A DNA stretch of 64,000 nucleotides from positions 7,806 to 71,805 of the forward strand of contig DHVW01000007.1 in the NCBI GenBank assembly GCA_002412865.1. The letters are read 5' to 3'. Shown piece by piece: positions 14,079-62,631 of the stretch. A program made the translations under genes and the position numbers. The notes below the pieces were generated by a model that saw nothing but the letters and a program-made list of their open reading frames with translations, was not told where the DNA came from and searched no databases. Each line of letters starts with the position of its first letter. Within the stretch, counting starts at the first letter, position 1. This DNA comes from Sulfurovum sp. UBA5198. Lineage in GTDB: Bacteria > Campylobacterota > Campylobacteria > Campylobacterales > Sulfurovaceae.

Positions 14079-14534
14079 TTAGAAATACTCTTTGAGTATT
14101 GAGGTAAAACTAGCTATTGTCTTATTGGCTTTAGATATATACTCATCAAATATATGTTTACTAGCTGGAAATGCTTCACTTAGCTCTTCGTAAATTGCTA
14201 TCTTGCCATCCATGTGTGCCTCTATTGCATCAAGCGTAATTATCATGGTATCTTTAGATACCGCATATTTCATCAACATCTCAAACATTCGTTTTCTAGG
14301 GTGTATTGACATAGACTCCCCAGCCTCTAATGCTATCTCTTTGAGGTCAAGTCTAGATATATAAATACCACTATTAACGGGTGCAATTAGTAGTGCATAA
14401 AGGGCATCTGTGTATGTAGGGTAATCTATTAGATTTACGCTCTCATCACTGTCGCATTCTCCATTTACGCAAAAATCCTCTTTCGTTTTTAGATTATCAA
14501 AAGTGACTTTTAGCGACTCATATGTATTGTTCAT
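14079..14534 (-). CDS. hypothetical cytoplasmic protein, last gene of Mo-operon 1; paralog of ORF 63195-63569
   Basis: 151 aa. Start overlaps the upstream stop by 4 nt. Ungapped by-eye alignment to the 124-aa ORF includes the identical hexapeptide SGIYIS. Confidence 0.5.
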   Translation of the reverse strand: MNNTYESLKVTFDNLKTKEDFCVNGECDSDESVNLIDYPTYTDALYALLIAPVNSGIYISRLDLKEIALEAGESMSIHPRKRMFEMLMKYAVSKDTMIITLDAIEAHMDGKIAIYEELSEAFPASKHIFDEYISKANKTIASFTSILKEYF

Positions 14535-15634
14535 TTGCTCTCCTCTAATTTTCTTGCATTTTGATGAAGCTGCGTGGCCTCATCTTCTTCTGTTTGACAT
14601 CTTTGGCATGTAGTTTCATTATCTTTACAAGTGAATTGATTGCCACACTCCACACATCTTTTGATATCAAACTTAGCTAATAGTCTCTGTGACGGCTCAA
14701 AGAACTCTCTTAATTCAAATGTTGGCTGAATATGAATAGCATCAGGCTCACAAACATCATGACACAAATGACACTTCACACAAAGCATTGAATCAAAATT
14801 AATCTGTGAAAAATTACTAACACTTCCCAGCGCTCCAGTGGGGCATATACGATGACACATTTGGCAATTTGTACACTTCTCATCAATATATTTTTGTGAA
14901 GTAAATGATATATCTACACTCTCTATCGTCTCATAATTCTGTGGCTTTGGTTCTCTTTTTAGAATTGCAAAAAGAAGCTTTCTCTTGTCTGGAATATTTT
15001 TGTTTTTGATTTTAGATATTATATTTGCATCAAACTCAAATATCTTTAAATCATCAGAGGCAACTTGCTCATCAAACATCGCTTTTTGTCTTGCTAGTGA
15101 TTCAGGTTTAAGTAGATTTAGAAAATCTCTTCTAGTACCACCTGCGGACTCTTTATCGCTGGGCTCTATTTGTAGATTTGCTGTATCTATTTTCTTGGTA
15201 GAAAATGTTGATAATATGAAATTTGCCTCTTGTACATTATGCATAATTTGAGGGTACAGAGTAGAAGCAATCTCACAACTACTGCAATGCCCAATGTCAA
15301 GATTGAGCTGTTGTTCGCTCCCTAAAGCTAGAGATACAAGCTCCTCTGCACTAAACAGTGATAAACACGGAATATTTGTTTTGCAAGATAGTACAGTTGG
15401 TGACTCAAAATGAGAAAAAGAAAAATTAATAGTACTAAAATTAGATAACGAAAAAGCACTTGTGGGACAAACTCCTACGCACCCACCACACTCTACGCAC
15501 ATTTCTGGCGTAAAAGCTGGTAAATGTGGAGCAAACTCAATAGCTTTTGTAGGGCAAATATCAATACATTTCGTGCAACCAGAAGCTATCGCACTAGCTC
15601 TAACACATGATGATAATTCTAGATTTAAACTCAT
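14531..15634 (-). CDS. polyferredoxin-like 4Fe-4S protein with C-terminal CxxC...CxxC ribbon (putative Mo-enzyme maturation/electron-transfer factor)
   Basis: 367 aa, no signal peptide. C-x9-CTKCIDICP, CVECGGCVGVCP, LSC-x5-C...HCSSCE, CTNCQMCHRICP, CVKCHLCHDVCEP, CVECG...CQRC. Paralog of 53779-54834. Confidence 0.7.
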   Translation of the reverse strand: MSLNLELSSCVRASAIASGCTKCIDICPTKAIEFAPHLPAFTPEMCVECGGCVGVCPTSAFSLSNFSTINFSFSHFESPTVLSCKTNIPCLSLFSAEELVSLALGSEQQLNLDIGHCSSCEIASTLYPQIMHNVQEANFILSTFSTKKIDTANLQIEPSDKESAGGTRRDFLNLLKPESLARQKAMFDEQVASDDLKIFEFDANIISKIKNKNIPDKRKLLFAILKREPKPQNYETIESVDISFTSQKYIDEKCTNCQMCHRICPTGALGSVSNFSQINFDSMLCVKCHLCHDVCEPDAIHIQPTFELREFFEPSQRLLAKFDIKRCVECGNQFTCKDNETTCQRCQTEEDEATQLHQNARKLEESK

Positions 15635-15643
15635 AACTATCTT

Positions 15644-16267
15644 TTATGCTTTTATTATTGAGCTTAAATACTCATAATCACTAAGTAAGAATTCCAAAGC
15701 TAATTCTGCTCCATCATGATAAAGTGGAGTGGTTGCTTCTTTTTTCATATTCACTAGAAACATTGGAGCCCACTTTAGCAAATGGTCATCAAGAAATCCT
15801 TTTTGAATATATGCAAGCTCATTAATACCATCTGTGTCGTTTGCCTCGAATGCTTTCTTGGTTGCATTACACAAAATATGCATAAATTCTAATTCAACTC
15901 CCAGATGGTCAGCACTAACAACTCTAGCTTTTTCTAATTCAACTTTAAAATCAAGTGCATTATAAAGAGACATAAGTGGACTTACTCCTCCACTTTGTAT
16001 CATCTGGTCTTCTTTTGTGTAAAAACTCTCATATGGCACTAGATGTAGTAAAAATAAATTAGCGTAATCTACATCATAATGCTGAGCTATTAACTCGCCA
16101 CAGCTAAGTTTATCCCTTTTGTCCCATGAGGCATAATGAGGCAATAGTGCTTTTAATGATTCATTCTCTTCGATGATTTTGAGGAACTCACAATCCACCT
16201 CACTAATCATTAGTCTAGATATTAACCCATATAGTGTTATTCTGTTTTCTATTTCTGTGATTGTCAT
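15644..16267 (-). CDS. TorD/DmsD-family redox-enzyme maturation chaperone
   Basis: 207 aa, all-helical. ADHLGVELEFM motif typical of the TorD family. Directly downstream of the catalytic subunit. Confidence 0.7.
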   Translation of the reverse strand: MTITEIENRITLYGLISRLMISEVDCEFLKIIEENESLKALLPHYASWDKRDKLSCGELIAQHYDVDYANLFLLHLVPYESFYTKEDQMIQSGGVSPLMSLYNALDFKVELEKARVVSADHLGVELEFMHILCNATKKAFEANDTDGINELAYIQKGFLDDHLLKWAPMFLVNMKKEATTPLYHDGAELALEFLLSDYEYLSSIIKA

Positions 16268-16342: not shown

Positions 16343-19300
16343 TTATGGTGTTACATTAAAGCTATAAGCATTATCAGTTAGTCCCCATGCAGGGCGTTTG
16401 TAGTGCTTTGGTCTTCTGAGTTTATCTTCGCTCGTAAGAGGTCTTGTTAGCTTATCTCTCCATGCTTGATATATTTTCATATTATTTGCATAGTTTACAT
16501 GAATATCACCAATAGTATCCTCTTCTCCAGCTAGCTCAATAGATACTTTTTGATGCCATGCATGATTTCCAGCTATTGGGTCTGGCTGACATGGTGCAAC
16601 AGCATTTTGCCATGCCCCGCTAAGTCCATCCCACCAAATATTGTCAACATCTTTATTGAACTCTTTAAACTGCCAACTATCTTTTCTCTCTAGCATGCCT
16701 TTATCAATTCCTTGTTTCGGCTTTAGTGTACCAGTAGTGCCATCCATGCTCATGTCAAATAGTGGAGCCCCAAGACCCATTACGCCTAGAGGCTGCGAAA
16801 ATCCAGGGATATCTACTGAATTTTTAAGCTTCCATCTGCCTGCATGATGCGAACATGCCAAAGTACCAGGTAAAATTCCCTCAGTAGGAACAGCCATAGC
16901 TATAAAGTATCCACTCACAAGTCCGCTAACTGTATCACTAATAGTAACTTTTATCTTATCTTCTCTTTTTATACCTAGTCTTGTTGCATCTTTTGTTGCA
17001 ATCCATATTGGATTGTGATTTTGAGATATTTCCATAAGATGTTTAGAGTTCACACTTCTAGTATGAATATTATATGGCAATCTATAAATAGTATTTAGTG
17101 CAAAATCGTTATCATTTTTCATATATTGATGGTGGACTTGACTAACTAAATGAATCATCTTGTCTCTTTGACCTTGATTTAGAGGATAGAATGGTACAGC
17201 ATACTCAGCCCATTTCCAATCTTTCATAAACTGAGCAAAAACTTCAAGCTTACGACTAGGTGTTCTAAACCCTTCTATTTTTTTGCCATCCATAACAAGA
17301 CCTATTGATTTCTCATCTTCACTATCATGTATTTTTGCTTTTACAATCGCACCATCAACTCTCATAGTAGAAGCATCAAACTTCATATGTTGAGCATGAA
17401 TGATACCTTCATGAGCCACAAGCTCTTTCTCTTGAGGTCTGTATACATCTTTTTCCTCAAGCCAAGTACCCATATCTCTGAGCATCTCATAGTTTGGATA
17501 TTTACTATTAGCATATTTTGGATTGTGTTTTGCTTCGTGTGCCAAATTATGCAAATTCTCAAATGCTGCATTGTACCATTCTGCAATAGTTACACATCTT
17601 GTTGGATCTTCTTTTGATGCCCAATGGTCTCTAGCCCCAAGACTACCGTCAGGGTCAATATAATGCACCATCATATTTGCCCAAAACTCAACCTCTTCCC
17701 AAATCTCACCAAGACCACTAGCCATGTGTGCTTCTAATGTTCCTCTTGTAGGATCTTTTGGTTTCCAGCCCATTTTTTCCAATGCTACTCTGAGAGCTGG
17801 TTGTCTAAATCCTATGAATACAGCTGGCTTAATAGGCTCACTATGTTGGTCATGTCGCTCACCACTTAGCCCCACAGGCAAGATATAGTCGCAATACCAG
17901 TTAGTCTCAGACCAAGTTGGAGAGAGATTAAATGTAAGCTCCATCTTGTCTTCTCTTTTCATGCACTCTATCCATCTAAAGCCATCTGGATTGATCCAAA
18001 CTGGATTATATTGTCTTGGCATATAAACTGCTAGTTTACTAGGTATTTTAAGCCCCCTTGCGTTCCATTTATCTCTCCACTCGTCATCCATCAGATAATG
18101 AGGAAGTAAGAAGCTAGGGTCATAAGTACATAAAGGCATCTCAGGTGGATACTCTAGCTCGTTCCACACATCCAGCTTGGCTGGTTTTTTCCCTGCAACA
18201 GTAGCGGCGTCTCCCTTGCCGTTAACGGCCACTTCGTGCCAATCTACAAAGCTAATTCCACCCTTGTCTCCAGCCATAGAACCACGCAAAGTAAGCACAA
18301 AGAATCCAGCTTTAGTGTTCATCCAGCCACCACGATGCCCAACTGTTCCAGCTCTCCAAAAGAATGAAGCCACTTTGTCCTCAGCATCAATAAACATCTC
18401 AAAGAGTTTTTCAAGAGTTCGTGCCTCTACTCTACACTCTTTAGCTGTAAACTCAAGCGTAAATGGAGCATACATTTTTTTCATAAGCTCTATAAAATCT
18501 TCATAGCTCTCACCAGTTGGTACTTCACTTATAATGCCTTCACTTTTCATAAATTCAAGATGAGCTTTATCTTTCATAAGAACATCCCAGTTTGTCCATT
18601 TTTTGACAAACTCATGTTTTACAAGGTCGTTTCCATTTTTATCTTTTTCATTAAATATTCTATTGGCAAGGTGCAAGTATAAAGCAGCCTCCGTACCCGG
18701 CCAAATAGGAACCCATAAATCAGCCATACCAGCTGAGTTTGACATTCTAGGGTCCATCACTACTAGCTTAGCACCTTTTCTTCTAGCGTCTGCTATCAGT
18801 CCTGCCGCTGCTTGGAAATAGTGACCAGCATCGGCTGCGTGTGAAGATTGCAAAAATATCAATTTACTATTAGCCCAATCTGTTGAGTTTCTATCAGTAC
18901 CTGCATATTGATGTGTTCCAGCTCTCGCTCCAGCACTACATATATTTGTATGTGAACCATAGCCATCAACCCCAAGCGACGCTGCAATTCTGTACCCAAA
19001 ACCACTCTCATTTGGTCTACCCACATGATACACTATTGATTTTTTAGATATTTCATCGCCTACTTTAAGGGTGTCATGTATTTTTTTACCAATAGCACTC
19101 ATAGCCTGATCCCATGAGGTTCTTACCCATTTGCCCTCACCTCTTTTGCTTCCATCAGCTCTTTTCAAAGGAAAAGGGATTCTATCTGGGTCATACATTT
19201 GAGATAATGTTGCGTATCCTTTAGCACAGTTTCTGCCACGGCTACCGTAGTGCAGAGGATTTCCCATATATTTTCTGACTTTTAAATCTTTTGGGTCTTT

Positions 19301-19693
19301 TGATTTTTTATAATCCCCGATTTCCACCCAAGCTGTTAGTCCACATAGTGCTTCGCAGTTATTACAAATAGTTGGTACAAGCATATACTCGTTCTCTTTG
19401 ATACCATCAGGATTACTTTCGCTTCTCACACCATTTCTCTCTGTACCGCCTCGTTTCCAGTCGTCACCATCTAGCTCTTTATAGCTATCCCAATTTGCAA
19501 AAGGAGGATAAAATGAAAGTTCGCCACCTTTGGTTGCGACATTTGGTTCGGTTGCAAATGCAGGAGTGTCTACAATCGTCTCAAACACACCTTTTACAAG
19601 TACTGCTCCAGCAGCAGTATATGCCGTTCCTTTTAAAAAGCTTCTTCTGCTCTCTAAAAATATCGGTTTTTTTATATCTATTTTCTTTGTCAT
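16343..19693 (-). CDS. Tat-exported molybdopterin (bis-PGD) oxidoreductase catalytic subunit, Ttr/Psr/Phs/Arr-like
   Basis: 1116 aa. Twin-arginine signal SRRSFLKGTAYTAAGAV. FS0 motif CNNCEALCG...NCAKG. Candidate Mo-ligand Cys in GSHTNICSAGAR. Confidence 0.85.
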   Translation of the reverse strand: MTKKIDIKKPIFLESRRSFLKGTAYTAAGAVLVKGVFETIVDTPAFATEPNVATKGGELSFYPPFANWDSYKELDGDDWKRGGTERNGVRSESNPDGIKENEYMLVPTICNNCEALCGLTAWVEIGDYKKSKDPKDLKVRKYMGNPLHYGSRGRNCAKGYATLSQMYDPDRIPFPLKRADGSKRGEGKWVRTSWDQAMSAIGKKIHDTLKVGDEISKKSIVYHVGRPNESGFGYRIAASLGVDGYGSHTNICSAGARAGTHQYAGTDRNSTDWANSKLIFLQSSHAADAGHYFQAAAGLIADARRKGAKLVVMDPRMSNSAGMADLWVPIWPGTEAALYLHLANRIFNEKDKNGNDLVKHEFVKKWTNWDVLMKDKAHLEFMKSEGIISEVPTGESYEDFIELMKKMYAPFTLEFTAKECRVEARTLEKLFEMFIDAEDKVASFFWRAGTVGHRGGWMNTKAGFFVLTLRGSMAGDKGGISFVDWHEVAVNGKGDAATVAGKKPAKLDVWNELEYPPEMPLCTYDPSFLLPHYLMDDEWRDKWNARGLKIPSKLAVYMPRQYNPVWINPDGFRWIECMKREDKMELTFNLSPTWSETNWYCDYILPVGLSGERHDQHSEPIKPAVFIGFRQPALRVALEKMGWKPKDPTRGTLEAHMASGLGEIWEEVEFWANMMVHYIDPDGSLGARDHWASKEDPTRCVTIAEWYNAAFENLHNLAHEAKHNPKYANSKYPNYEMLRDMGTWLEEKDVYRPQEKELVAHEGIIHAQHMKFDASTMRVDGAIVKAKIHDSEDEKSIGLVMDGKKIEGFRTPSRKLEVFAQFMKDWKWAEYAVPFYPLNQGQRDKMIHLVSQVHHQYMKNDNDFALNTIYRLPYNIHTRSVNSKHLMEISQNHNPIWIATKDATRLGIKREDKIKVTISDTVSGLVSGYFIAMAVPTEGILPGTLACSHHAGRWKLKNSVDIPGFSQPLGVMGLGAPLFDMSMDGTTGTLKPKQGIDKGMLERKDSWQFKEFNKDVDNIWWDGLSGAWQNAVAPCQPDPIAGNHAWHQKVSIELAGEEDTIGDIHVNYANNMKIYQAWRDKLTRPLTSEDKLRRPKHYKRPAWGLTDNAYSFNVTP

Positions 19694-19703
19694 TCTGTTC
19701 TCC

Positions 19704-20651
19704 TTAGCTTAACGGTAGTAGTTGTGGGATTTTTAGCCATACATCTTTTGCAAAATACAAGCCAATTAATGCTAGTATCCCCGCAAATCTTAGAAGTGTG
19801 TAATTATCCTCTTTTACGGAAGTAGTTACTAGTGCGAATGGAATAATATATCCCACTATCATGGCAAACCAAAATTCAAAACTATACGAGCCTCCAAGAT
19901 GGATAAATGCTAGTGTAGCCTCTACTTCGCTATTTTTGAATGAAAAGAAATATTCACCCATATATAAAGTGAAGCTAATAGCAACTGTAACAGCTAGTAT
20001 CATTGCTATTCTGGCTCTAGGTTCTTTGCCCCATGACTCAGCCACAATAAGTAGCGTTGCACTTCCAGCCATAATAGCTGCAAGCATCATTTGTGCCATC
20101 TCAATAGGTGCTTCCCATAGGCCTCTTGCACTTGATTGTGCCATAATTATAGCTGTATACATAGTAACAGGTAGAGCTAGAAATACAATATATGGTAATA
20201 GTTTTTCATATAATCCACTGTTTGCTCTTACTTTTTTAGCCGTCTTGTTGCTCCTAAGTAGATTAGGCATATAATCAAGCAACCCAATAGCTGCCAATAG
20301 TGTAACAAGCCCCGTAAATAGACTAGCCATCCATGCTCCTACTGTAATTGCACTTGTAAAGTGTGGATGAAAAAATATATTTACCATTCTAAGCGGTTGA
20401 TGTAAATCTAAAAGAGTAAATAATAAAAATACATTTAACGCAACAAAAGATATAATAGGCATTAGCCATCTAACATTTGGTATTTTATCCTTGCTATATT
20501 TATAAAGCATATATGCACCAACCATAATTACACCAGTACCGATACTCTTCGCCCACATATTTAGAGTAATCATCCAACCCCAAACAATACCATTTAAAGC
20601 CACATCAAATGAGACAACGGCGTGCGTTGCTGCTACTGTACTCTCTACCAT
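19704..20651 (-). CDS. NrfD/PsrC/TtrC-type integral membrane quinol-interacting subunit
   Basis: 315 aa, about 8-9 TM helices. Lies between the FeS and catalytic genes. Shares 1 nt with the upstream stop. Confidence 0.8.
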   Translation of the reverse strand: MVESTVAATHAVVSFDVALNGIVWGWMITLNMWAKSIGTGVIMVGAYMLYKYSKDKIPNVRWLMPIISFVALNVFLLFTLLDLHQPLRMVNIFFHPHFTSAITVGAWMASLFTGLVTLLAAIGLLDYMPNLLRSNKTAKKVRANSGLYEKLLPYIVFLALPVTMYTAIIMAQSSARGLWEAPIEMAQMMLAAIMAGSATLLIVAESWGKEPRARIAMILAVTVAISFTLYMGEYFFSFKNSEVEATLAFIHLGGSYSFEFWFAMIVGYIIPFALVTTSVKEDNYTLLRFAGILALIGLYFAKDVWLKIPQLLPLS

Positions 20652-21403
20652 TAGTGTTCCCCTTTGTTGCTATCTTTTTTATTGCTTTCCATTCCAGCAA
20701 AACCAGTATTATCCAAATGATCATGTCCAAAGATTGGAGTCAAGAATCTATCTAGCATTGAGTGATTCGGGTCACCAACTGTATCAAGATGAGTGATATT
20801 TGTAAATAAGCTATAACCCTCGATTCGCTGGTGTGCTAAAGGATTTAAAGTTTGATTTCCACCACCTACATAATAGTGTTTAGGATTTGTATGTTTTTCA
20901 GGTTTTCTAACCTGAACTCCACCTTGGTGTTCCATTATGTATCTTGAAATGTGGCTATCTTTGTTATCAATATCTCCGAATATATTAGCCTCAACAGGAC
21001 AAGCTACCACGCATGCTGGCATCATTCCGCCCTCAACCCTATGAGCACAATATGTACATTTATCAGCCGTATTTGTCTCAGGGTTCATATATATAGCATC
21101 ATAAGGACACGCCATAATACAGCCAGCACAACCTATACATCTACTACTATCTATATTTACTATTCCGTTTGGTAAATAGTGAAGAGCTGAAACTGGACAT
21201 ATTTTTTCACATGGTGCATCTTCGCAATGGTTACAACGCATAGGCGTAAAACTTCGTGATGTATCAGGGAAAACACCTATATCTACATATTTTACCTTTA
21301 GTCTCCATGATGCTAGAGGCACTTCATTTTCTACCTTACAGGCTATTTCACAACCCTTGCACCCCATACATAGGTTTAGATCAACCAAAAATCCTAATTT
21401 CAT
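20651..21403 (-). CDS. four-cluster 4Fe-4S subunit (PsrB/TtrB/NrfC-like)
   Basis: CMGCKGCEIAC, CNHCEDAPCEKICP, CIGCAGCIMACP, CTYCAHR...PACVVACP. I prefer the ATG at 21403 (MKLGFLVDL..., RBS GAGGAG) over the ORF-track start at 21442. Confidence 0.85.
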   Translation of the reverse strand: MKLGFLVDLNLCMGCKGCEIACKVENEVPLASWRLKVKYVDIGVFPDTSRSFTPMRCNHCEDAPCEKICPVSALHYLPNGIVNIDSSRCIGCAGCIMACPYDAIYMNPETNTADKCTYCAHRVEGGMMPACVVACPVEANIFGDIDNKDSHISRYIMEHQGGVQVRKPEKHTNPKHYYVGGGNQTLNPLAHQRIEGYSLFTNITHLDTVGDPNHSMLDRFLTPIFGHDHLDNTGFAGMESNKKDSNKGEH

Positions 21404-21664
21404 AGACTCTCCTCGTTTAGCTTTAGTTATTGATATATGCAATTACAATATCTTACCTGCATAGTATAGTTGAAATCTTATTAAAAAAGATATAGTTTTA
21501 GTATAAAATAAGAAAATATTATCTATCTTGAGTAAAAAAGAATATATTGCATTAATAATGATGAACGAATCATGCAGTTATTTTGCTAATTATCACTATA
21601 CATCTTGCTATTAACTTCATATTGTTATAATTGCAACAATATTAAACAATAAAAAGGTTACAAA

Positions 21665-53778: not shown

Positions 53779-54834
53779 TTACATATCCCTGGCGAGTGTA
53801 AATAATTTTGTATTATTTTGTGCAAAATCTATACATCTATTGCAAATAACTTCGCCATGCTTTTGAGGAAAATCGACTCTGCACTCTTTGCAGGCTACAA
53901 AATGATTTTCAATTAACACTTCAGCTCTACCAAATGCAAGTGAAACCATATCAAAATTATCAAAGCTACTAATAGACTTTGGCTTACATATATCATCACA
54001 TATTCCACATGCTATGCATCTAGTGGGCTGAAACAGTATTTTTGTCTTTTCCGCACCAAAAAATAGTGCATTTGTTGGACAAAATTGCAAACAATCTCCA
54101 CAATTCGTACAAGAGTTAAAATCTATCTTTTTATTGCTTAGAAAACTGAATTTACCTTCAATAACTTGGGTCGTGAAATTTTCAATAGAGTATTTAAGTG
54201 AATTTTGCAACACAAGCCTTGATTTTGGCAATGTCTCCTTTGGGTCAAATAATTTATCAAACTCACTACTATCATCACCAAGTGCTTGTGCTTCAGTAGC
54301 AAAACTAAATATAGCATCCCTTCTGCTTATCTCTGGCTTGGTCTCTCTTGACTCAATCTCACTTATGCCAATTGGGGCTAAAAATCTATTTGCCTCACTC
54401 ATCGTTGCTCTAATTTGAGCCTCTACCTTGCCACCACAATTAATCACTTCACATGAGCTACAATGTGACATATCAAGCGTTACACTTTTCTCTCTTAGTC
54501 CTAGTGAAATTAAATTTTCACATCCAAAAATGCTCAAGCATTGACCTAAGTTTTTACACGATAATACCAAATCTTTATCAAGTCCACTTTTCAATATAAA
54601 TGATATTGGGTCAAACTCGCTATTTGAAAAAGTAGAGGTCGGACATGATCCGATGCATGCATTACAATCAATACAAACTGTGCTATCTAATGCTATTCGT
54701 TTTGCATGAGAAAGTGCAAGTGCATCAGCTGGGCAAGCCTCTATGCAGATACTGCATTCATTATACAAATACTCTGTTCTGAGGCATTTTAATGGATCAA
54801 TAGATATTTTCGCATTTGAACTAAGCAGACTCAT
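53779..54834 (-). CDS. polyferredoxin-like 4Fe-4S protein with C-terminal CxxC...CxxC ribbon (paralog of 14531-15634)
   Basis: C-x9-CSICIEACP, CIDCNACIGSCP, LSC-x5-C...HCSSCE, CTNCGDCLQFCP, CIACGICDDICKP, CKEC...CNRC. The ATG at 54834 (MSLLSSN...) is preferred, because the ORF-track start adds a hydrophobic leader overlapping the TorD-like gene. Confidence 0.7.
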   Translation of the reverse strand: MSLLSSNAKISIDPLKCLRTEYLYNECSICIEACPADALALSHAKRIALDSTVCIDCNACIGSCPTSTFSNSEFDPISFILKSGLDKDLVLSCKNLGQCLSIFGCENLISLGLREKSVTLDMSHCSSCEVINCGGKVEAQIRATMSEANRFLAPIGISEIESRETKPEISRRDAIFSFATEAQALGDDSSEFDKLFDPKETLPKSRLVLQNSLKYSIENFTTQVIEGKFSFLSNKKIDFNSCTNCGDCLQFCPTNALFFGAEKTKILFQPTRCIACGICDDICKPKSISSFDNFDMVSLAFGRAEVLIENHFVACKECRVDFPQKHGEVICNRCIDFAQNNTKLFTLARDM

Positions 54835-55429
54835 TTGTATTCTCCACAACCATATTGCTATAATCTTCAAGCATAAAATCAATAGTAAAATCAGACAAGT
54901 CACTATAAAATGGGTTGTCACTCATCTCTTTTATTGCAATTAAATATTGTGGTATCCAAGCCATTAGATGTTCAGTATAAAACTTCATTTGTGCTTTTGT
55001 GTCTTGTTGCAAAATAAGTTTTTGCATAAATCCAAATTCAATAGCTATATGGTCAGGCACATGATGATGTGACGCCTCTAAGTTTAAATCATATCCATGA
55101 TTTACATAAAATTGAGTAACTGGGTTTTGAAGTCCCACAAGTATCTCATTTTTAGCATCAATTGCAGATGATTCAATCGGGTGGTTATTCATCACAAATA
55201 GCGAATTATAGGCAATACTAAGCTCTCTTAATGTGCTCTGCTCGTCGCCACTGTGTAAAAAATCAAATGCTCCATCGCCTATTGTTCTTAATAGTTCATC
55301 ATTGGCTTTTAGCTCTGTGAATAGCTTTTCGCTTATCTCTGAACTGTAAATTCTTGATAAAAATGCGTAAATATATGCTCTTATTTTATTGTCCACTATA
55401 GACTCCTTTTCTCTAGAAAGAATACCCAA
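54821..55429 (-). CDS. TorD/DmsD-family redox-enzyme maturation chaperone
   Basis: 202 aa. PDHIAIEFGFM motif. Helical. Confidence 0.7.
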   Translation of the reverse strand: MGILSREKESIVDNKIRAYIYAFLSRIYSSEISEKLFTELKANDELLRTIGDGAFDFLHSGDEQSTLRELSIAYNSLFVMNNHPIESSAIDAKNEILVGLQNPVTQFYVNHGYDLNLEASHHHVPDHIAIEFGFMQKLILQQDTKAQMKFYTEHLMAWIPQYLIAIKEMSDNPFYSDLSDFTIDFMLEDYSNMVVENTNESA

Positions 55430-55507: not shown

Positions 55508-55960
55508 TTACAAGCACCCTTTAAAGAATGATTTTCCTCCAGCAGCTGGAGCTTCGAAATGTGAAGCTACGATAGTATTCGCACCTTCATCGAAGTCACC
55601 TTTGATAGTAACTTCATTTTTATTAATACCTTCTTCAAGCATTTTTGCTGTATCAATTTTAGAAGAGTCAATGTTGTAATATTTCATATCGTCATGTACA
55701 AACAATACTAACTCCATCTTCTCCTTGTCTCCAAATTCCCATTTTTGATTACAATCGCCTTCACCACATACAACACTTTCCATGCGACAATCTGCGAACA
55801 TACCTTCTTCGGCACACCATTTAGTTGTAAGAAAACCTTTTTTCTCAAATGTGCCATTTGCATCAGCTGATGCATTTGTCTCATTTGAATCGCCTTTTCC
55901 TTTATTGCAACCTGCTAGGATTAATCCTGCAAGCAATGCAGTTAAAACTAATTTTTTCAT
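55508..55960 (-). CDS. Cys-rich periplasmic lipoprotein of unknown function within Mo-operon 2
   Basis: 150 aa. Lipobox LILAGC. Additional Cys in WCAEEGMFADCRMESVVCGEGDC and a C-terminal GCL. Start overlaps the gamma gene stop by 4 nt. Confidence 0.5.
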   Translation of the reverse strand: MKKLVLTALLAGLILAGCNKGKGDSNETNASADANGTFEKKGFLTTKWCAEEGMFADCRMESVVCGEGDCNQKWEFGDKEKMELVLFVHDDMKYYNIDSSKIDTAKMLEEGINKNEVTIKGDFDEGANTIVASHFEAPAAGGKSFFKGCL

Positions 55961-57183
55961 TTTTCTACCTCCGCTTTTAGAGTTTTGAGATACGCTACAG
56001 CGTCGTTTATACTTTTATCATCAGTCATCATTGGTGGCATTGTTGATGTTCTTTTGCCTGTTTTTGCATCCAACTCATACCATTTGAAATTTTTATGTGC
56101 ATTTCTATTATACCCTGGAACTATAACCGCACTTGGGTCTTTGATAGATTCAGCCAAATATGCACTAGTTGTATATCCACCAATATTTTTAAGGCCTGGA
56201 GCCATATATGGAGATGACGCTACTTTTGTAGCACTTGTTGTATGACAACTCACACACATAGCCTCTACTTGCACCTGGCCAGCTTTAGCGTCACCTTTGG
56301 GTTTGCTCGTAAGCTCAGCTATTAGTGCCTCGCCTCCGCTTTTACCTTGAAGTTTAACTGCAGTCCATGAAGATAGGTTTTTTACACCACCACGATTATA
56401 TTTTGAGCCGTCCCAAATAGCAAATGCAACAGGTACAGCACCAGAACTAGCACTTAAACTTTGAGCAATTACAGCTGTCCATTTTTTCGTTTTAGCATCA
56501 TATGTCATGCTCATTCCGGACTTGTCGCTACCATCTTTAATCTCAGTTAGTGATCTAAAACCTTCAGATATAAACGCTTTGTGATACTGTTTGCTAAGTT
56601 TAGCTATTGCTGCTCTATTTTTCTTTAGATCCTCACCAAATGCATTTACCATATTTGTAGCAAGTTGGCTTGCTACATCTTTGTTTCCATTTGGTTCAAA
56701 ATATGCTGGGATAGATTTTGCAATATGAACAACAACAGGTCTGCCATCACTGCCCATACCAATATATGGTAATTTTTTAGGGTCGCTATAATTCACAGGA
56801 ATCTGTGTGGCAAAACCATCAGCATATGCATCTGATGCATTTTTTGCCATTGTATTATTTGTAGCATCGCTCCAAGTTAGTTTAAATGCGATAGTCGAAC
56901 CGCTATAAACTGCTTGAATTTGTGCCATTTTAGCTTTAGCGTCGCTATTTACAGCGTTACCTTTTTTGTCATTAAGCTTAATTGTAGTCTGTGGATAAAG
57001 AACAATCGAAGTTGGTTTTGAACCACTCCACATACTGCTACTTGTTGAAACTGAAGCCAAATTTATGCTTCCAACTTTAGATGCAGTTATCACGCCACTT
57101 GGAGTTACAATAGGTTTAGCAAAAGCTACTGTAGCCAAACTGGTGGCTACTAAAAGTGATTTTGTTATATTACGCATGTGCAT
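55957..57183 (-). CDS. gamma subunit: EB_dh-like (type II DMSO-reductase heme-b subunit) domain fused to a C-terminal monohaem cytochrome c
   Basis: 408 aa. Sec signal ending VAFA-KP. N-terminal ~290 aa in the gamma-subunit position. C-terminal CVSCH haem-c motif with a downstream MPPM (Met ligand candidate). Confidence 0.65.
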   Translation of the reverse strand: MHMRNITKSLLVATSLATVAFAKPIVTPSGVITASKVGSINLASVSTSSSMWSGSKPTSIVLYPQTTIKLNDKKGNAVNSDAKAKMAQIQAVYSGSTIAFKLTWSDATNNTMAKNASDAYADGFATQIPVNYSDPKKLPYIGMGSDGRPVVVHIAKSIPAYFEPNGNKDVASQLATNMVNAFGEDLKKNRAAIAKLSKQYHKAFISEGFRSLTEIKDGSDKSGMSMTYDAKTKKWTAVIAQSLSASSGAVPVAFAIWDGSKYNRGGVKNLSSWTAVKLQGKSGGEALIAELTSKPKGDAKAGQVQVEAMCVSCHTTSATKVASSPYMAPGLKNIGGYTTSAYLAESIKDPSAVIVPGYNRNAHKNFKWYELDAKTGKRTSTMPPMMTDDKSINDAVAYLKTLKAEVEK

Positions 57184-58339
57184 TCCCCTCTGTTTTATTT
57201 CCTTCGCCGTGTGGCTTCTCGTCTACGAATGGTAGTGAAAAATCTGCTGTAAATTTACCTTTTGAATATCTATCATCAATTGGTGCCAATGGATTTTTAT
57301 TTCCACTTGCTTTTGCAACATCTTGATAATAGTTCGTATCAAGTCTAAACATATCAGCATGATGATAAGCTATCAATATATCCATCAATTCACTCTCACC
57401 AGTTTTTGCTCTTTTCTCTTTTTCGCTCTTTATAGTCTTAATGGCTGCATGAACTGGCTTACCAAATAGCAATTCAAGTTCTGTCATTGGAACCCTTTGG
57501 CTTCCTTCGATTATTCTACCTTCTGCATCAAATTTAGCTGGTGCTTCTGTTGGTGGAACATAATATACATTTGGTTGAGTTCCATAATCACTTCTTAGTG
57601 GCAGTGCAACTTTATATTTTGTAACCAATTTATATACTTGACCTTCTGTGTCATCCAAGAAACCTACAAAACGAATTCTACCAACACACTGTTGTGCACA
57701 CGCTGGTGGAAGACCTTGTTCTATTCTAGGGAAACAAAGAATACATTTTTCACTTTTTGAAATCTTAGAGTTGAAATATATTTTTTTGTATGGACAACCT
57801 GCTATACAATATCTATACCCTTGACATCTATCCAAATCCACTAGAACAACGCCATCTTGATCTCTTTTGAAGATTGCGTCTCTTGGACAAGCACTCAAAC
57901 AGCCAGGGTTTGTACAATGGTTACAAATTCTAGGCAAATAGAAGAAGTAGTTATCGCTAGGGAAGTTTCCTTTGCCAACATCTTCGTCCCAGTTTGGTCC
58001 CCATGTTGGTGTACTATCAGCGTGGAATGCTGGTGTAGCATCACCTTTTGTATAGTTATATGTTCCTACATCTTCATAGTTAAAATCCCAAGGCACACCA
58101 TAATCAGCTTCGATATTAGGTATTACGCCCTCTTTAAGATCACCAGCAGCATCAAATCCACCACCTAGATCCATCCAGTTTTTAGGGTATCCAGTACCAG
58201 GATATGTTTCCACATTATTCCAGTACATATACTCTCTACCATTTCTATTTGTCCATTGTGTTTTACACGCAACAGTACATGTTTGGCATCCGATACATTT
58301 GTTCAGATCCATTACCATTGCTAATTGTCTTTTTGACAT
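57170..58339 (-). CDS. NarH-type four-cluster Fe-S beta subunit of a type II Mo-bisPGD enzyme
   Basis: 389 aa. MVMDLNKCIGCQTCTVACK...YWNNVE, CNHCTNPGCLSACP, CQGYRYCIAGCPY, CILCFPRIEQGLPPACAQQC. Confidence 0.85.
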   Translation of the reverse strand: MSKRQLAMVMDLNKCIGCQTCTVACKTQWTNRNGREYMYWNNVETYPGTGYPKNWMDLGGGFDAAGDLKEGVIPNIEADYGVPWDFNYEDVGTYNYTKGDATPAFHADSTPTWGPNWDEDVGKGNFPSDNYFFYLPRICNHCTNPGCLSACPRDAIFKRDQDGVVLVDLDRCQGYRYCIAGCPYKKIYFNSKISKSEKCILCFPRIEQGLPPACAQQCVGRIRFVGFLDDTEGQVYKLVTKYKVALPLRSDYGTQPNVYYVPPTEAPAKFDAEGRIIEGSQRVPMTELELLFGKPVHAAIKTIKSEKEKRAKTGESELMDILIAYHHADMFRLDTNYYQDVAKASGNKNPLAPIDDRYSKGKFTADFSLPFVDEKPHGEGNKTEGNAHA

Positions 58340-58351
58340 ATCTATTTCCCC

Positions 58352-61258
58352 TTACGCTTTCTCTATATTTATTGCGCCATCATACGCATACTGATTTCCG
58401 TCCCAAAGACCGCCAAATTTCAAGTGACCCCAGCCATCTGCCATCTCAAGCAAGTTTAGTGCTGTTGGCACACACTCATTGTGACCTTTGTTAAATCTAT
58501 ACATATTTGGCTCCCAACCATGCTCCATCACTAGACCATCTGGAGGACAAGAGCTTGAAACTTTTGCCATTACAAAGAACTCACTAAGAGTATTAAATAC
58601 TCTCATCATATCACCATCTTTGATATTCATTTTGGCAGCGACTAGATTATTAATCTGACCATATGGCACACCACCTCTTTGTAGTCTTTGAAGTATTCTG
58701 CTCGTTTTATAGTTTGAGTGAATAGACCATCTAGCATGTGGTGTCATTAGCATAAATGGATATTTTTTAGGGTCATTTGGTCTAATTCCCTCCATTCCTG
58801 TGTTCGTATTTGCACCCATTTGAATATAAAGAGGATGATCCACATAGAATGTTTGTCTTCCACTTACAGTTTCAAATCTCTCAAATTTATAAAGCATATT
58901 CTCGAAAGTATTATACGGTCTATCACTATACAATGGAGACGACTTACCAGCTTTTTCATTAATTTGCAAGAATCCACCAGCTTTATACATCTTCTCAGCA
59001 GTCCATGGCTCATACTGTACACATTTTTCTAGTGCTGCGTCAAGTGCCATTTTATCTGTTCCCAAATACGGCTCCATAGCAGTTTCGCTCTCTTCATCTG
59101 TATTTGTAAACTCTTTATATACTATTGATAGGTCATGGAAACCTGGTTTTGCATATTTTTTATCGTCTTTTACTTTTGCTTTAGAGATATTTTCTGGTTT
59201 ATTAGCTATCTCTTCAAGTTTTTTTGCAATAAGTCCCATCATGCTCCACTCATCCATCGCTTCACCTACTGGTTTTAGGTTAGCTACTGGTTGAGCAAGA
59301 TTTGTAAATCTATGGTATCCTGGGCTAGTTCTAAGGTCATGAACCTCATAGTGAGATTTCGCAGGAAGCAAAATATCTGCATAACATGCAGCTTCACTCA
59401 TCATGTAATCCACATACGCAAAATATTTAATCTTTCTTAGGAAAGCTTCTCTATATTCACTACCTTTGTTTCTTCTAAATCTAGAATCAGCAATGATAAG
59501 TGCAACTTCAGGCTCCCACCATGGTTTATTTACATTTCCATGTTTACTAGCATCGTTTATTTTGCCATCTTTACCAGCTGCGAGCATAGAATTGATAACT
59601 TCCATATAATCTTTTTTGCTCATACCATTTTGAGCTCTTTTTACATCTTCATCACCAAAGTATTTATCAAAAGTCTTCATGCCATCACCAAATACAAACT
59701 CACCAACAAATCCAGAACCAAATCTAGCAGCATATTTACCACTAAATCCACCTAGAACTTCTAGTCCACTTAGTTGGAATTCATTTTCAGTATTAAGTCC
59801 GCCATATGGCCCAAGTCTACCAGTAAGTCCACAGATTGAAGCAATATTCCATACGCTCATTAGACCATTAAAATATTTATTTAGTGAAAATCCTGTTGTG
59901 ATAGATACTACTTTTGGTAAAGCTATATCACGAGCAAGCATTCTAACTGTATCTGGGTGTACACCTGTGATTTTTTGAGTCTCTTCAGGAGAAAATCTCT
60001 CGATATTCTCTTTTAGCATTTCAAATACAGTAGTTACCTCTACATCTTCGCCATTTAATAGCTCAACATCCCAGCTACCTTCAAGCTCAGGGTCAATCCC
60101 AAGCTCAGCAAGACGAATAGATTTATGCTCACTACCTTCAGTACCTGGCATAAGAGCGATTTCGCCACCATTATTGTTCATTACATAGAACTCTTCATGG
60201 AATTTTTCAGCATCTTCAGGTTTTGCAGGTTTTTCCACATCACTTCTTCTTAAAAGTTTTTTAGACTCTTTCATTACTAGGAATGGAAGATCTGTAAATA
60301 GTTTCATAAACTCAGGCTTATAAAGCTTCTCTTTTAATATCTCATGAATAACTGAAGCAGCAAGTATATTATCACTACCAGCTTTGATAGGTATCCATAT
60401 ATCAGCTGATTTTGCAGAACCATTAAACTCTGGCGTGATTACATAAACTTTAGCACCATTATATTGACCTTCCCACACGAAGTGAGCATCAGGTATTCTA
60501 CTTACAGATGGATTTCCACCCCAGAATACTGCTGTATCTACATTATACATAAAATCATAAGTACAGCCAACATTCCCCTCGCCATATGCAACAGCAGCAC
60601 CAGAGAACATATCCCCTAGGTATGATGATGGATAGATACGAGATGAACCTAACATTGTAGAAAATCGTAGTGGTCCTCCTCTTCTACCTTCTGTTAGTAG
60701 TCCAGTACCAGCATGAACTGTTAGTTTTGATGGACCTTTTGCAGGATCAACCATCACATCCCAGATTTTTTGAGCTACTTCACCAGCTGCGTCATCCCAG
60801 CTTAGTCTCTCCCACTTACCCTCACCTCTTTCTCCAACTCTTTTCATTGGATAAAGAAGTCTATTTTTTTCATACATTACTTGTGAATGCTGTACGCCTT
60901 TATTGCATCCTCTTGGATTAAAATCAGGAATTTTAGGGTTAATAGATGGGTATCTAGCCGATTGATTCTCTCTAGTTACTACGCCGTTGTGAGACCAGAT
61001 TTCCCATGCACAGTTACCTTGACAGTTTACACAGTGATATGCAAAACCAGTATCCTCTATATTTCCACGCATAAATCCAAATTCATTTCTATACATATCT
61101 TCTGTATATGTACCGTTTGGATAACCTTCAAGTCCCGTCTCTATTTTCATAGCATCAGTTTTAGCGAACAATGCACCTTGAGAGGCGACCATTGTAGCTG
61201 TTACAGTAGAAAATTTAAGAAAATTTCTTCTTTTTTCGTTTGTCATATTTTTTGTCAT
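58352..61258 (-). CDS. Tat-exported NarG-type (type II DMSO reductase family) molybdopterin catalytic alpha subunit; substrate unknown
   Basis: 968 aa. Twin-arginine EKRRNFLKFSTVTA. FS0 motif H-x3-C-x3-C (YHCVNCQGNCAW). Candidate Asp ligand region SSYLGDMFSG. Size is like SerA/ClrA/DdhA/EbdA/PcrA rather than NarG/NxrA. Confidence 0.85.
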   Translation of the reverse strand: MTKNMTNEKRRNFLKFSTVTATMVASQGALFAKTDAMKIETGLEGYPNGTYTEDMYRNEFGFMRGNIEDTGFAYHCVNCQGNCAWEIWSHNGVVTRENQSARYPSINPKIPDFNPRGCNKGVQHSQVMYEKNRLLYPMKRVGERGEGKWERLSWDDAAGEVAQKIWDVMVDPAKGPSKLTVHAGTGLLTEGRRGGPLRFSTMLGSSRIYPSSYLGDMFSGAAVAYGEGNVGCTYDFMYNVDTAVFWGGNPSVSRIPDAHFVWEGQYNGAKVYVITPEFNGSAKSADIWIPIKAGSDNILAASVIHEILKEKLYKPEFMKLFTDLPFLVMKESKKLLRRSDVEKPAKPEDAEKFHEEFYVMNNNGGEIALMPGTEGSEHKSIRLAELGIDPELEGSWDVELLNGEDVEVTTVFEMLKENIERFSPEETQKITGVHPDTVRMLARDIALPKVVSITTGFSLNKYFNGLMSVWNIASICGLTGRLGPYGGLNTENEFQLSGLEVLGGFSGKYAARFGSGFVGEFVFGDGMKTFDKYFGDEDVKRAQNGMSKKDYMEVINSMLAAGKDGKINDASKHGNVNKPWWEPEVALIIADSRFRRNKGSEYREAFLRKIKYFAYVDYMMSEAACYADILLPAKSHYEVHDLRTSPGYHRFTNLAQPVANLKPVGEAMDEWSMMGLIAKKLEEIANKPENISKAKVKDDKKYAKPGFHDLSIVYKEFTNTDEESETAMEPYLGTDKMALDAALEKCVQYEPWTAEKMYKAGGFLQINEKAGKSSPLYSDRPYNTFENMLYKFERFETVSGRQTFYVDHPLYIQMGANTNTGMEGIRPNDPKKYPFMLMTPHARWSIHSNYKTSRILQRLQRGGVPYGQINNLVAAKMNIKDGDMMRVFNTLSEFFVMAKVSSSCPPDGLVMEHGWEPNMYRFNKGHNECVPTALNLLEMADGWGHLKFGGLWDGNQYAYDGAINIEKA

Positions 61259-61270
61259 ATTCTATCTCCC

Positions 61271-62341
61271 TTATCTTCTGACTGGTAAATTCATATCATT
61301 ACCCCAAGCATCCCAGCTACCTGTGAATACTTTTACATTTTGGTATCCCAAGTTACGCAAAGCAGTTATTGCGTGAGAGCTTCTACCTGTCCCTACTTGA
61401 CAATAAGCATATATTGTTTGATCTTTTCTTATGCCATTCTTGTCAAATACCTTTTGCATCTCTGCATTTGATTTGAAAGATTTTTTATTATCTTCATCAT
61501 AAAGATTTTTCCACTCTATAAATTTAGCACCAGGAATATGTCCGCCTCTAGCAACATTGTCTTTCTTGTCTTCACCTATAATCTCAGTCATGCCTCTACT
61601 ATCAATAATTACAAATTTAGACTTTGCACCATTTTTAGCTATATCTGCTTGAGCTTTAGCGACTTCTTTTTTTTCTGCAATATATTTTTTGTCAATATTT
61701 TTTGGGTCAATTACATAATTACTAGCTGCATGTTTAGTCTCTTCTCCTGGTTGCATTATAGTTGTTGTTTCTAGTTTTGCTACCTGAGCTTTAATAGCTT
61801 CTTCATTGGCTTTTAGTTTTGCAACTTGAGCTGCATCTTTAGTTGCTTTAATAGTTTTCTTAAGTGCTTTTCTTTGTTTTTTAAGGGTTTCTATTTTCAC
61901 TTGTACAGGATCTACTAACTTGATACCTTCATATCCACCATTAAGGATTTTAATATTTTTATGGCCATAACTCTCAAAGAAACTATGTACTCCAGTAGCA
62001 TTTGGTCCACGGTAGTTATCATAAGCTATGATTGTTTGATCGTTTCTAATGCCTTTGCTTCTGATATACTCCTGTGCTTCTTTTGGACATTGATACAGAG
62101 GTGCACATTTCATATTTCCCATTTTATCAGAGTGATGCAAGTGGTGAGCACCCATACTTACTGAGCCTTTTATGTGTCCATTGGCATACGCATCTTCATC
62201 GTCACCTGATACAAAAATATAATTCTTATTCCCTATCAGTTTAACTGCTTCAGCAGGTTCAATAAGTTGTACTGGTGCAGCCCAAAGTGAGGTTGCAACC
62301 AATAAACTACTGAGCAAAACTGTACTTTTAACTCTTCTCAT
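61271..62341 (-). CDS. secreted tandem-rhodanese sulfurtransferase with coiled-coil linker
   Basis: 356 aa. Signal peptide ...SLWA-AP. The N-terminal rhodanese domain lacks the catalytic Cys (AYDNYRGPNATG). A Lys/Ala-rich linker follows. The C-terminal domain has the active loop CQVGTGRS. Ends 12 nt before the alpha subunit ATG. Confidence 0.8.
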   Translation of the reverse strand: MRRVKSTVLLSSLLVATSLWAAPVQLIEPAEAVKLIGNKNYIFVSGDDEDAYANGHIKGSVSMGAHHLHHSDKMGNMKCAPLYQCPKEAQEYIRSKGIRNDQTIIAYDNYRGPNATGVHSFFESYGHKNIKILNGGYEGIKLVDPVQVKIETLKKQRKALKKTIKATKDAAQVAKLKANEEAIKAQVAKLETTTIMQPGEETKHAASNYVIDPKNIDKKYIAEKKEVAKAQADIAKNGAKSKFVIIDSRGMTEIIGEDKKDNVARGGHIPGAKFIEWKNLYDEDNKKSFKSNAEMQKVFDKNGIRKDQTIYAYCQVGTGRSSHAITALRNLGYQNVKVFTGSWDAWGNDMNLPVRR

Positions 62342-62631
62342 TCGTTTTCCTTATAAATTTTATCACCCTATGAAATACTGATTTTATACTGTACAGCTCG
62401 GGTTTAACAGGTTATTATAGAGTGACTTCTCTTAAACTAAAATAAAAACAAATTATAATTTAAAAATATGTTTTACTTATGTTAAAAAATAGCTATTTCT
62501 TTATTTGATATAAATTTTAAATATTAGCATTATCTGTAAAATATATTAAAGTAAATATTTTTATAGTAATTTGCAGAGTTTTAATCATAAAAATGCTATA
62601 TTCGCACAAATAATGAAAAAGGCTACAAGAA

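Follow-up and report, generated by a model that had tools for sequence, protein, structure and literature searches.

Why should a polyferredoxin that bears no export signal accompany the genes of an exported enzyme, and why should this happen twice in one genomic region? The question is raised by a 64,000-nucleotide (nt) stretch of Sulfurovum sp. UBA5198 (GenBank assembly GCA_002412865.1, contig DHVW01000007.1, positions 7,806 to 71,805), hereafter the window, which has a G+C content of 35.7% and carries two operons for exported molybdoenzymes, both on the minus strand. The first of them, operon 1, ends with genes for a TorD-like chaperone (TorD1), a polyferredoxin (polyFd1) and a 151-amino-acid (aa) protein; operon 2 ends with TorD2 and polyFd2, and a 124-aa paralogue of the small protein is encoded nearby on the other strand. 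A preliminary description of this DNA had reported these six open reading frames (ORFs), all of which were found at the coordinates of Table 1, and had taken them for a general, uncharacterised maturation or cluster-insertion system. We find that maturation is the best-supported role; the sets, however, appear dedicated to individual enzymes rather than general, and they are not uncharacterised in every part, as the polyferredoxins belong to a family with a named member, ArxB2.

Chaperones, polyferredoxins and their genomic partners

The three pairs of proteins are homologous, as had been proposed. BLASTP aligns the two chaperones at 24% identity over 204 aa (E=5e-16) and the two polyferredoxins collinearly at 31% identity over 360 aa (E=4e-44), and the two small proteins align without gaps with 26 of 105 residues identical (25%, E=1e-7). 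Searches of all window ORFs by hidden Markov model (HMM) and BLAST recovered exactly two copies each of TorD, polyferredoxin and small protein. Besides four ferredoxin Cys motifs, polyFd1 has a further Cys group in its middle part and a CxxC...CxxC at the C-terminus; polyFd2 has the same order of Cys motifs, in agreement with the preliminary description. The ORF of polyFd2 can be extended upstream to a GTG at 54921 (53779-54921 on the minus strand), which would add 29 strongly hydrophobic residues and give a 101-nt overlap with TorD2; given that gene calls in relatives begin at the conserved MSLL methionine (54834), this extension is probably not translated.

Comparisons with Pfam and NCBIfam detected only generic ferredoxin domains in the polyferredoxins and matched no curated family. 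A profile search of 1.84 billion representatives nevertheless revealed at least 178 clusters of relatives at 50% identity with E<1e-30, most of them full length (320-430 aa); half-length matches are apparently gene fragments and not split genes. Across a 29-sequence alignment of the family (23-46% identity), the 16 Cys of the four ferredoxin motifs and the four of the C-terminal CxxC...CxxC are invariant and three middle Cys nearly so, and the only other invariant residues are two Pro, one Ala and two adjacent Arg. A tblastn search of annotated plasmids with a distant representative retrieved full-length members from Sulfuricella denitrificans skB26 (pSCD), Azoarcus sp. KH32C, Sagittula, Bradyrhizobium and two haloarchaea; the same search with polyFd2 and with a further query (P0391) added nothing. 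In pSCD the polyferredoxin gene stands first, followed by genes for an ArrA-like molybdenum subunit, an Fe-S subunit, an NrfD protein and TorD, with divergent genes for a PhnD-like protein, a kinase and a sigma-54 regulator. This cluster corresponds to arxB2ABCD and arxXSR of strain skB26 (Ospino et al., PMC6549141); its position in the cluster, the ArrA-like catalytic subunit and that publication together identify the first gene as arxB2. The family HMM matches Sulfuricella ArxB2 with E=1e-59 over HMM positions 4-359, and polyFd1 aligns with it collinearly over 344 aa (BLASTP), with the paired arginines and the C-terminal CxxC...CxxC in register. Judged by sequence, both polyferredoxins of the window are thus full-length homologues in the named ArxB2 family and are neither NapF nor NapG: polyFd2 scores 37.8 bits on TIGR00402 against a cut-off of 102.2, polyFd1 lies outside the best 25 matches of that model, and orthology to NapG was likewise considered and rejected. 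Since ArxB2 is already a named member, the family is not wholly undescribed. ArxB2 is a ferredoxin of anaerobic arsenite-oxidase clusters with a role called unclear (PMC6549141), and earlier literature took arxB2 to be specific to arx clusters. The present data contradict this specificity. Neither catalytic subunit of the window is an ArxA, each scoring only about 70 bits on the ArrA model.

The family is further marked by a motif that resembles the leader of twin-arginine translocation (Tat) substrates. It follows the pattern [SDT]-R-R-x-[FL]-[FL]-[KRS], in agreement with the Tat consensus S-R-R-x-F-L-K, but lies in the middle of the protein, with no hydrophobic stretch after it. The invariant arginine pair of the 29-sequence alignment belongs to this motif, which is present in all 120 close relatives at residues 166-176, and Sulfuricella ArxB2 has GRRAFFSFL at the same position. 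The pair is RR in 107 of 128 full-length representatives and KR in about 10 more. None of the accessory proteins (TorD, polyferredoxin and small protein, for which this had been noted before, and the leucine-rich variant (LRV) repeat protein described below) has an N-terminal signal-like segment, and none contains a hydrophobic 19-mer above a Kyte-Doolittle (KD) value of 1.3.

The chaperones themselves pass the Pfam threshold for TorD/NarJ-family proteins (Table 1) and fall below the NCBIfam equivalog cut-offs for TorD, DmsD, the type II chaperone and EbdD; their best scores are 50-56 bits on the TorD model (cut-off 132) and 36-48 bits on TIGR03482 (cut-off 152). Their linkage to the polyferredoxin was followed in the 80 closest of 424 relatives, taken as species-level loci and all orthologous to operon 1. 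TorD lies upstream of the polyferredoxin gene in every one of these loci that has sufficient upstream sequence. Downstream, 75 loci extend for 480 nt or more, and in 67 of them the small gene comes next after the polyferredoxin gene. A metagenome scan, run with a search pattern shared with Sulfurovum, yielded 80 further loci; 75 are Sulfurovum-type and show the same gene orders. The other five are of a high-GC type. High-GC contigs keep the full order of Fe-S subunit, membrane anchor, catalytic subunit, TorD, polyferredoxin and small protein (B-C-A-TorD-polyferredoxin-small), at identities of 30% for the polyferredoxin, 38% for TorD and 53% for the catalytic subunit, with the small protein recognised by HMM at E=9e-19. 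The named distant members of the polyferredoxin family come from Myxococcota metagenome-assembled genomes. Since TorD1 is nearer to its high-GC orthologue (38%) than to TorD2 (24%), each enzyme appears to have its own ancient, dedicated set.

Members of the polyferredoxin family also stand with TorD beside a PhsA-like B-C-A enzyme in Azoarcus, beside FDH3-type formate dehydrogenases (FDHs) together with DUF3306 and DUF3305 in Sagittula and Bradyrhizobium, and beside an FDH-like enzyme in the haloarchaeon Haladaptatus. The family thus occurs with TorD-like genes next to at least five clades of Tat-exported molybdoenzymes in several bacterial phyla and a haloarchaeon; the linkage outside the window, on which the preliminary description had made its view depend, is strong in Sulfurovum-type, high-GC metagenome, arx, Psr-like and FDH clusters. 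In the literature searched there is no description of a TorD-polyferredoxin-small protein module, and as far as that literature shows the small-protein family, the internal signal mimic and the link to LRV and Mrp proteins are also undescribed. RefSeq names for the Sulfurovum mangrovi set are 'TorD family', '4Fe-4S dicluster domain-containing' and 'hypothetical'.

Several of these loci depart from the arrangement of the window. At least five genomes (L027, L035, L043, L060, L065), and probably L017 and L033, have the triad without molybdoenzyme genes in the upstream flank covered. The upstream neighbours in L043, L065 and L035 are unrelated genes (YjeF-type, IleRS and DUF2334), and hence the triad behaves as a unit. 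Such triads are often followed by one or two more ORFs of about 150 aa, one of them NlpC/P60. Many Sulfurovum genomes, though not the window, have a hypothetical gene of about 156 aa between the polyferredoxin and small genes (L092 9492-9962; L043 11096-11578; L047, L073, L074, L078, L085); its sole match is a sub-threshold one to Shikimate_dh_N (E about 1.5e-4), and homology to LRV was rejected. The high-GC locus L094 has a different 183-aa ORF in that place (2431-2982). On plasmid pAZKH of Azoarcus sp. KH32C (L173 7405-10538), three hypothetical genes separate TorD from the ArxB2-like gene and one for a 132-aa protein follows it; none of these resembles the small protein of the window, and the third, small component of modules of this kind may accordingly be lineage-specific. 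In Sagittula sp. P11 (L175 5767-13400) and Bradyrhizobium sp. 131 (L177 3503-10212) the ArxB2-like module is held in a divergent 650-aa Fe-S protein. These two clusters also contain a biotin/lipoate-ligase-like gene and DUF6505, and that of Sagittula additionally DUF6494 and Mrp/NBP35, so that the FDH accessory set looks like a larger one, also undescribed.

The small helical proteins and the operons of the window

The alignment check set beforehand for the small ORFs bore out their relationship: comparison of the two family alignments by hhalign gave a probability of 97% (E=1e-10, 101 columns). Both proteins contain the hexapeptide SGIYIS (14355-14372 on the minus strand and 63273-63290 on the plus strand), and the previously reported ungapped alignment at about a quarter identity was reproduced. 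The residues invariant in the core, with high-GC relatives included, are L45, S55, G56, Y58, R80 and P123. An N-terminal extension with an invariant CxxGxC (residues 22-27), in a region predicted to be disordered, characterises the clade of the 151-aa protein and is missing from the 124-aa and high-GC clades; to judge from the motif, it could be a metal- or cluster-handling site. All 296 relatives lack a name. An AlphaFold model (pLDDT 83) shows a disordered N-terminus followed by helices alone, and Foldseek comparison of this model with PDB folds returned none with E<1, the best being E=1.2. Sequence and profile searches likewise gave no match in Pfam, NCBIfam or PDB. One relative carries a precomputed Pfam tag, PF28017.1, which had no counterpart in the Pfam copy searched. 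No similarity was found to the hypothetical proteins of the Azoarcus and FDH clusters, and identity with DUF3305 or DUF3306 was rejected (no Pfam match up to E=10; hhalign against the Sagittula proteins, probability <=0.1%).

The 124-aa paralogue does lie across the divergent intergenic region from operon 2, much as the preliminary description stated, but it is not a lone gene. It is the middle member of a plus-strand operon, divergent from operon 2 and joined by 4-nt overlaps, in which it is preceded by a gene for an LRV protein and followed by one for a putative Mrp/NBP35 (ApbC-type) ATPase that runs out of the window. The 345-aa orthologues of the latter match FeS_assembly_P and ParA/MipZ in Pfam. 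The neighbourhood of LRV and the small paralogue is kept in L006-L011, the only loci with contexts of the polyFd2 type, and the LRV-small-Mrp operon is divergent from an operon of type 2 in three lineages, where the small protein is 60-87% identical to that of the window. An Mrp/NBP35 gene also occurs, independently, beside the polyferredoxin-containing gene of the Sagittula FDH cluster. Some genomes have Mrp genes at a distance of 6-9 kb on the downstream side of operon 1; these are more likely housekeeping copies and were rejected as part of the module. A 232-aa low-complexity Ser/Leu-rich ORF antisense to LRV (62517-63215, minus strand) is almost certainly not a gene.

The catalytic subunits that these sets accompany (MoA1 and MoA2) belong to different families, as had been stated. 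Operon 1 runs from an Fe-S subunit through an NrfD-type anchor to MoA1, TorD1, polyFd1 and the 151-aa ORF. The best PDB match of MoA1 is Thermus PsrA (2vpw, E=4e-28), over the N-terminal part only, and it falls far under every NCBIfam equivalog cut-off (PhsA, 120 bits against 694; TtrA, 56.5 against 1750); on these matches it is classed as a divergent PsrA-like enzyme of a clade without a name. Together with the B and C subunits (gene order B-C-A; 16343-21442, minus strand, in the window; 4540-9419 in L093), it represents a PsrA-like clade of about 1115 aa that spans Sulfurovaceae to high-GC (Myxococcota-like) bacteria, at 53% identity for MoA1 and 70% for the Fe-S subunit. Orthologues of the Fe-S subunit, 70-93% identical, are the first gene of the same operon elsewhere, and its translation probably begins at the ATG at 21403, for a product of 250 aa.

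Operon 2 comprises genes for a double rhodanese, the alpha (MoA2), beta and gamma subunits, a lipoprotein, TorD2 and polyFd2. MoA2 is by similarity a probable type II DMSO reductase nearest to the perchlorate reductase PcrA, its best PDB match (4ydd/5e7o, E about 1e-100). On the NCBIfam models for this subfamily the beta subunit passes (510 bits against 480.7), and the other two fall short: alpha scores 722 bits, with a cut-off of 984.75, and gamma 79.5, with one of 169.85. With its leading Sec-exported double rhodanese, the fusion of gamma to a cytochrome c and the conserved lipoprotein, this would be an unusual type II DMSO-reductase set (55508-62341, minus strand), in which the rhodanese hints at a sulfur compound as substrate. 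Promoter and terminator scans of the window gave matches at or under chance and do not define its transcription units.

Table 1. Features of the window discussed in the text, with their coordinates and supporting evidence
Feature	Coordinates	Strand	Evidence and remarks
Small helical protein, 151 aa	14079..14534	-	Core of ~105 aa with SG-x-Y motif; 4-nt overlap with polyFd1
PolyFd1, ArxB2-like, 367 aa	14531..15634	-	Family HMM E=1e-104; BLASTP to Sulfuricella ArxB2 E=1e-19
Tat-like motif TRRDFLN, polyFd1 residues 167-173	15116..15136	-	Aligned family motif
TorD1, TorD/NarJ-family chaperone	15644..16267	-	PF02613 (Nitrate_red_del) 64.6 bits, cut-off 22.2; 9 nt upstream of polyFd1
MoA1, 1116-aa Tat-exported Mo-bisPGD catalytic subunit	16343..19693	-	Leader ESRRSFLKG; Pfam Molybdop_Fe4S4, Molybdopterin, Molydop_binding
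NrfD/PsrC-type membrane anchor, operon 1	19704..20651	-	Pfam NrfD E=1.1e-15; hydrophobic, KD19 = 2.41
Fe-S subunit, PsrB-like, operon 1	20651..21442	-	Pfam Fer4_11 E=1.6e-23; relatives 251 aa
PolyFd2, ArxB2-like, 351 aa	53779..54834	-	Family HMM E=1.5e-97; BLASTP to Sulfuricella ArxB2 E=1e-14
Tat-like motif SRRDAIF, polyFd2 residues 170-176	54307..54327	-	Aligned family motif
TorD2, TorD/NarJ-family chaperone	54821..55429	-	PF02613 43.8 bits, cut-off 22.2; 14-nt overlap with polyFd2
Lipoprotein, 150 aa, operon 2	55508..55960	-	LAGC lipobox; kept in L006, L009, L010
Gamma subunit, EB_dh haem-b domain fused to c-type cytochrome	55957..57183	-	Pfam EB_dh, Cytochrom_C
Beta Fe-S subunit, operon 2	57170..58339	-	TIGR03478, above cut-off
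MoA2, Tat-exported alpha subunit, probably of the type II DMSO-reductase family	58352..61258	-	Leader EKRRNFLKF; TIGR03479
Periplasmic tandem rhodanese, Sec signal, operon 2	61271..62341	-	Pfam Rhodanese, 2 stretches, E=6e-30; position kept in L006-L011
LRV repeat protein (leucine-rich variant, HEAT-like); opens the divergent operon	62632..63198	+	PF01816 38.6 bits, cut-off 21.6
Small helical protein paralogue, 124 aa	63195..63569	+	Overlaps each neighbour by 4 nt
Putative Mrp/NBP35 (ApbC-type) Fe-S carrier ATPase, N-terminal 145 aa	63566..64000	+	DUF59-like N-terminus, P-loop GKGGVGKST; gene leaves window

A candidate maturation set and its alternatives

In light of the above connections, we lean, on balance, towards the view that each Tat-exported molybdoenzyme has its own cytoplasmic set for maturation before export, which would work in the manner of NapD and NapF. 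This reading is preferred because the accessory proteins are cytoplasmic and the enzymes are Tat-exported with complete electron paths, and because the polyferredoxin travels with a leader-binding chaperone and not with one type of enzyme. The electron paths run through the B subunit and NrfD in one case and through beta and the haem-b/cytochrome-c gamma subunit in the other, and hence a cytoplasmic ferredoxin has no evident redox partner in either operon.

From the homology, conserved linkage, missing export signals and motif conservation described above, we infer the following functional steps. The TorD-family chaperone would bind the twin-arginine leader of the apo-catalytic subunit; such leader binding is established for the family. 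The polyferredoxin, with four predicted [4Fe-4S] sites, an extra Cys group and a Zn-ribbon-like C-terminus, would act beside the chaperone as NapF does beside NapD, and could deliver or repair the [4Fe-4S] cluster or clusters of the apo-enzyme, or keep them reduced, prior to export. Its internal Tat mimic might be a handle recognised by the TorD-like chaperone or by the Tat receptor, and through this recognition the insertion of clusters would be tied to the freeing of the real leader. As for the small helical protein, it may be the adaptor of the set; at locus 2 its paralogue would be co-translated with an LRV scaffold and a putative dedicated Mrp/NBP35 protein, which would load the clusters. 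More tentatively, these parts could amount to a second tier of Tat proofreading, widespread but hitherto unrecognised, in which an Fe-S donor carries a mimic of the leader that is read by the TorD-like chaperone or TatBC, its reading being coupled to hand-over of the leader, with an adaptor and an Mrp/NBP35 loader in support. This fuller scheme we regard as possible rather than probable; if true, it explains the long-unexplained arxB2.

Could the polyferredoxin instead be a true redox subunit, either exported as a Tat passenger with the alpha and beta subunits or serving as an electron wire on the cytoplasmic face, with TorD a mere neighbour? Its sixteen Cys in four canonical [4Fe-4S] motifs are indeed what polyferredoxins that serve as electron wires possess, the PDB sequences it matches best are those of MvhB and FwdF, the arx literature groups ArxB2 with the structural genes, and arxB2 is transcribed and, in one strain, arsenite-induced. 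Against this, the protein has no Tat or Sec signal, and both enzymes already have a beta Fe-S subunit. The NrfD/PsrC anchors are cofactor-less and cannot pass electrons across the membrane, operon 2 lacks any membrane subunit, and the enzymes beside which this family stands have electron paths that are not related to each other. Furthermore, a conserved signal-like RR motif would be pointless in an electron wire, and the triads without molybdoenzyme genes in the flank covered also speak against such a role, which we therefore consider unlikely.

A different objection concerns the small proteins, which might be helix-turn-helix-like regulators of their operons, or which at locus 2 might belong to a general LRV/Mrp Fe-S operon that adjoins operon 2 by chance. 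The divergent position is typical of regulators, and the gene is dispensable in some loci. There are also weak resemblances to PadR/AphA-type regulators, individually insignificant (Foldseek probability <=0.44 with TM<0.4; Pfam AphA_like at E=0.009 in one of 13 members), and to Vir_act_alpha_C in two of 13 members (Pfam, weak and not significant); no match to any DNA-binding family reaches significance, and identity as a PadR/AphA-type regulator was rejected. At locus 1, moreover, the gene overlaps the polyferredoxin stop codon and is the last of its operon, and its counterpart at locus 2 overlaps LRV on one side and Mrp on the other. The small gene also accompanies the polyferredoxin gene across lineages in which the polyferredoxins are only 30% identical. 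In our view either version of this idea is improbable. Least credible is a polyferredoxin that acts as a redox- or oxygen-sensing checkpoint or decoy, whose mimic occupies or releases the chaperone and gates export with no donation of clusters: a Tat-like motif conserved in a non-exported protein, many labile clusters and the constant pairing with a leader-binding chaperone would suit it, but no such checkpoint is known and the Mrp/NBP35 linkage fits cluster supply better, even if sequence alone cannot separate the two ideas.

Several observations weigh against a maturation set built around the mimic and the adaptor. About 8% of representatives, and the fused form of the haloarchaea, have lost the motif or keep it in degenerate form (RR is missing from 21 representatives, about 10 of which show KR instead), and the RR could be a relic, frozen in place after fusion with a Tat-dependent ferredoxin. 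The AlphaFold2 model of polyFd1 (20-sequence alignment, pLDDT 50) is unusable for cluster geometry or exposure of the motif. The small gene is clearly absent from four loci with ample flank (L045, L053, L061, L087) and from the arx, Azoarcus and FDH clusters, and so the small protein is not essential to the polyferredoxin-TorD pair. The link at locus 2 is one of synteny, seen only in three lineages that are themselves related. The operon of arx clusters has arxB2 at one end and arxD at the other, whereas in the window the polyferredoxin gene directly follows TorD. Finally, the literature counts ArxB2 with the 'structural' genes of arx clusters, in one case as a putative small subunit (PMC6683785); other arx papers give it simply as a [4Fe-4S] protein.

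A dedicated maturation role would bear on a wider problem, as Fe-S delivery to Tat substrates and the sensing of completed assembly by chaperones are understood only in outline and for few E. coli enzymes, and the one dedicated ferredoxin on record, NapF, is poorly understood. The ArxB2-like family can recruit extra parts, namely the small helical protein, the LRV scaffold and Mrp/NBP35. Hundreds of genes whose present label is '4Fe-4S dicluster domain-containing protein' or 'hypothetical protein' would also gain a better annotation.

Comparison with known systems

ArxB2, the nearest named relative, is likewise encoded with a TorD-like gene (ArxD) and a Tat-dependent molybdoenzyme. Its partner is ArxA, whereas those of the window are a divergent PsrA-like enzyme and a probable type II DMSO reductase; identity to ArxB2 is only 22%, and the small helical protein is absent from the arxB2 clusters and present here. 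Functionally, the closest likeness is to NapF, which is cytoplasmic, binds NapA and is required for assembly of the NapA Fe-S cluster in Rhodobacter (review PMC10609526). NapF too has multiple [4Fe-4S] clusters, a non-functional Tat-like SRR motif and a gene next to that of a leader-binding chaperone: the E. coli protein starts ASRRGILTGRW and lacks any hydrophobic region, and its gene overlaps napD. The polyferredoxins share its functional hallmarks, being predicted to be cytoplasmic, with [4Fe-4S] motifs, a non-exporting RR motif and an adjacent chaperone gene, but this is resemblance and not membership. Homology extends no further than a single generic ferredoxin dicluster (50 hhalign columns), NapF has its motif at the N-terminus and not, as here, inside the protein, and NapF pairs with a NapD-type chaperone, whereas the polyferredoxins of the window pair with the TorD type, are twice as long and have extra Cys groups.

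The chaperones resemble TorD, DmsD and NarJ in passing PF02613 and in being encoded downstream of a catalytic subunit with a Tat leader; unlike the E. coli paradigms, they are always paired with a polyferredoxin. A related pairing was recorded by Bay et al. (2015, PMC4464133), who noted 'hypothetical ferredoxins' in 43% of TorD-fdh operons. In the 650-aa protein of the FDH operons, with TorD adjacent, the ArxB2-like module forms the C-terminal ~330 aa behind an N-terminal extension of ~250-260 aa, and the small proteins of those operons (DUF3305, DUF3306, DUF6505, DUF6494) are unlike that of the window (hhalign probability <1%). The ATPase gene beside the 124-aa paralogue, as seen for its first 145 residues, shares the DUF59-like N-terminus and P-loop of the Mrp/NBP35/ApbC carriers.

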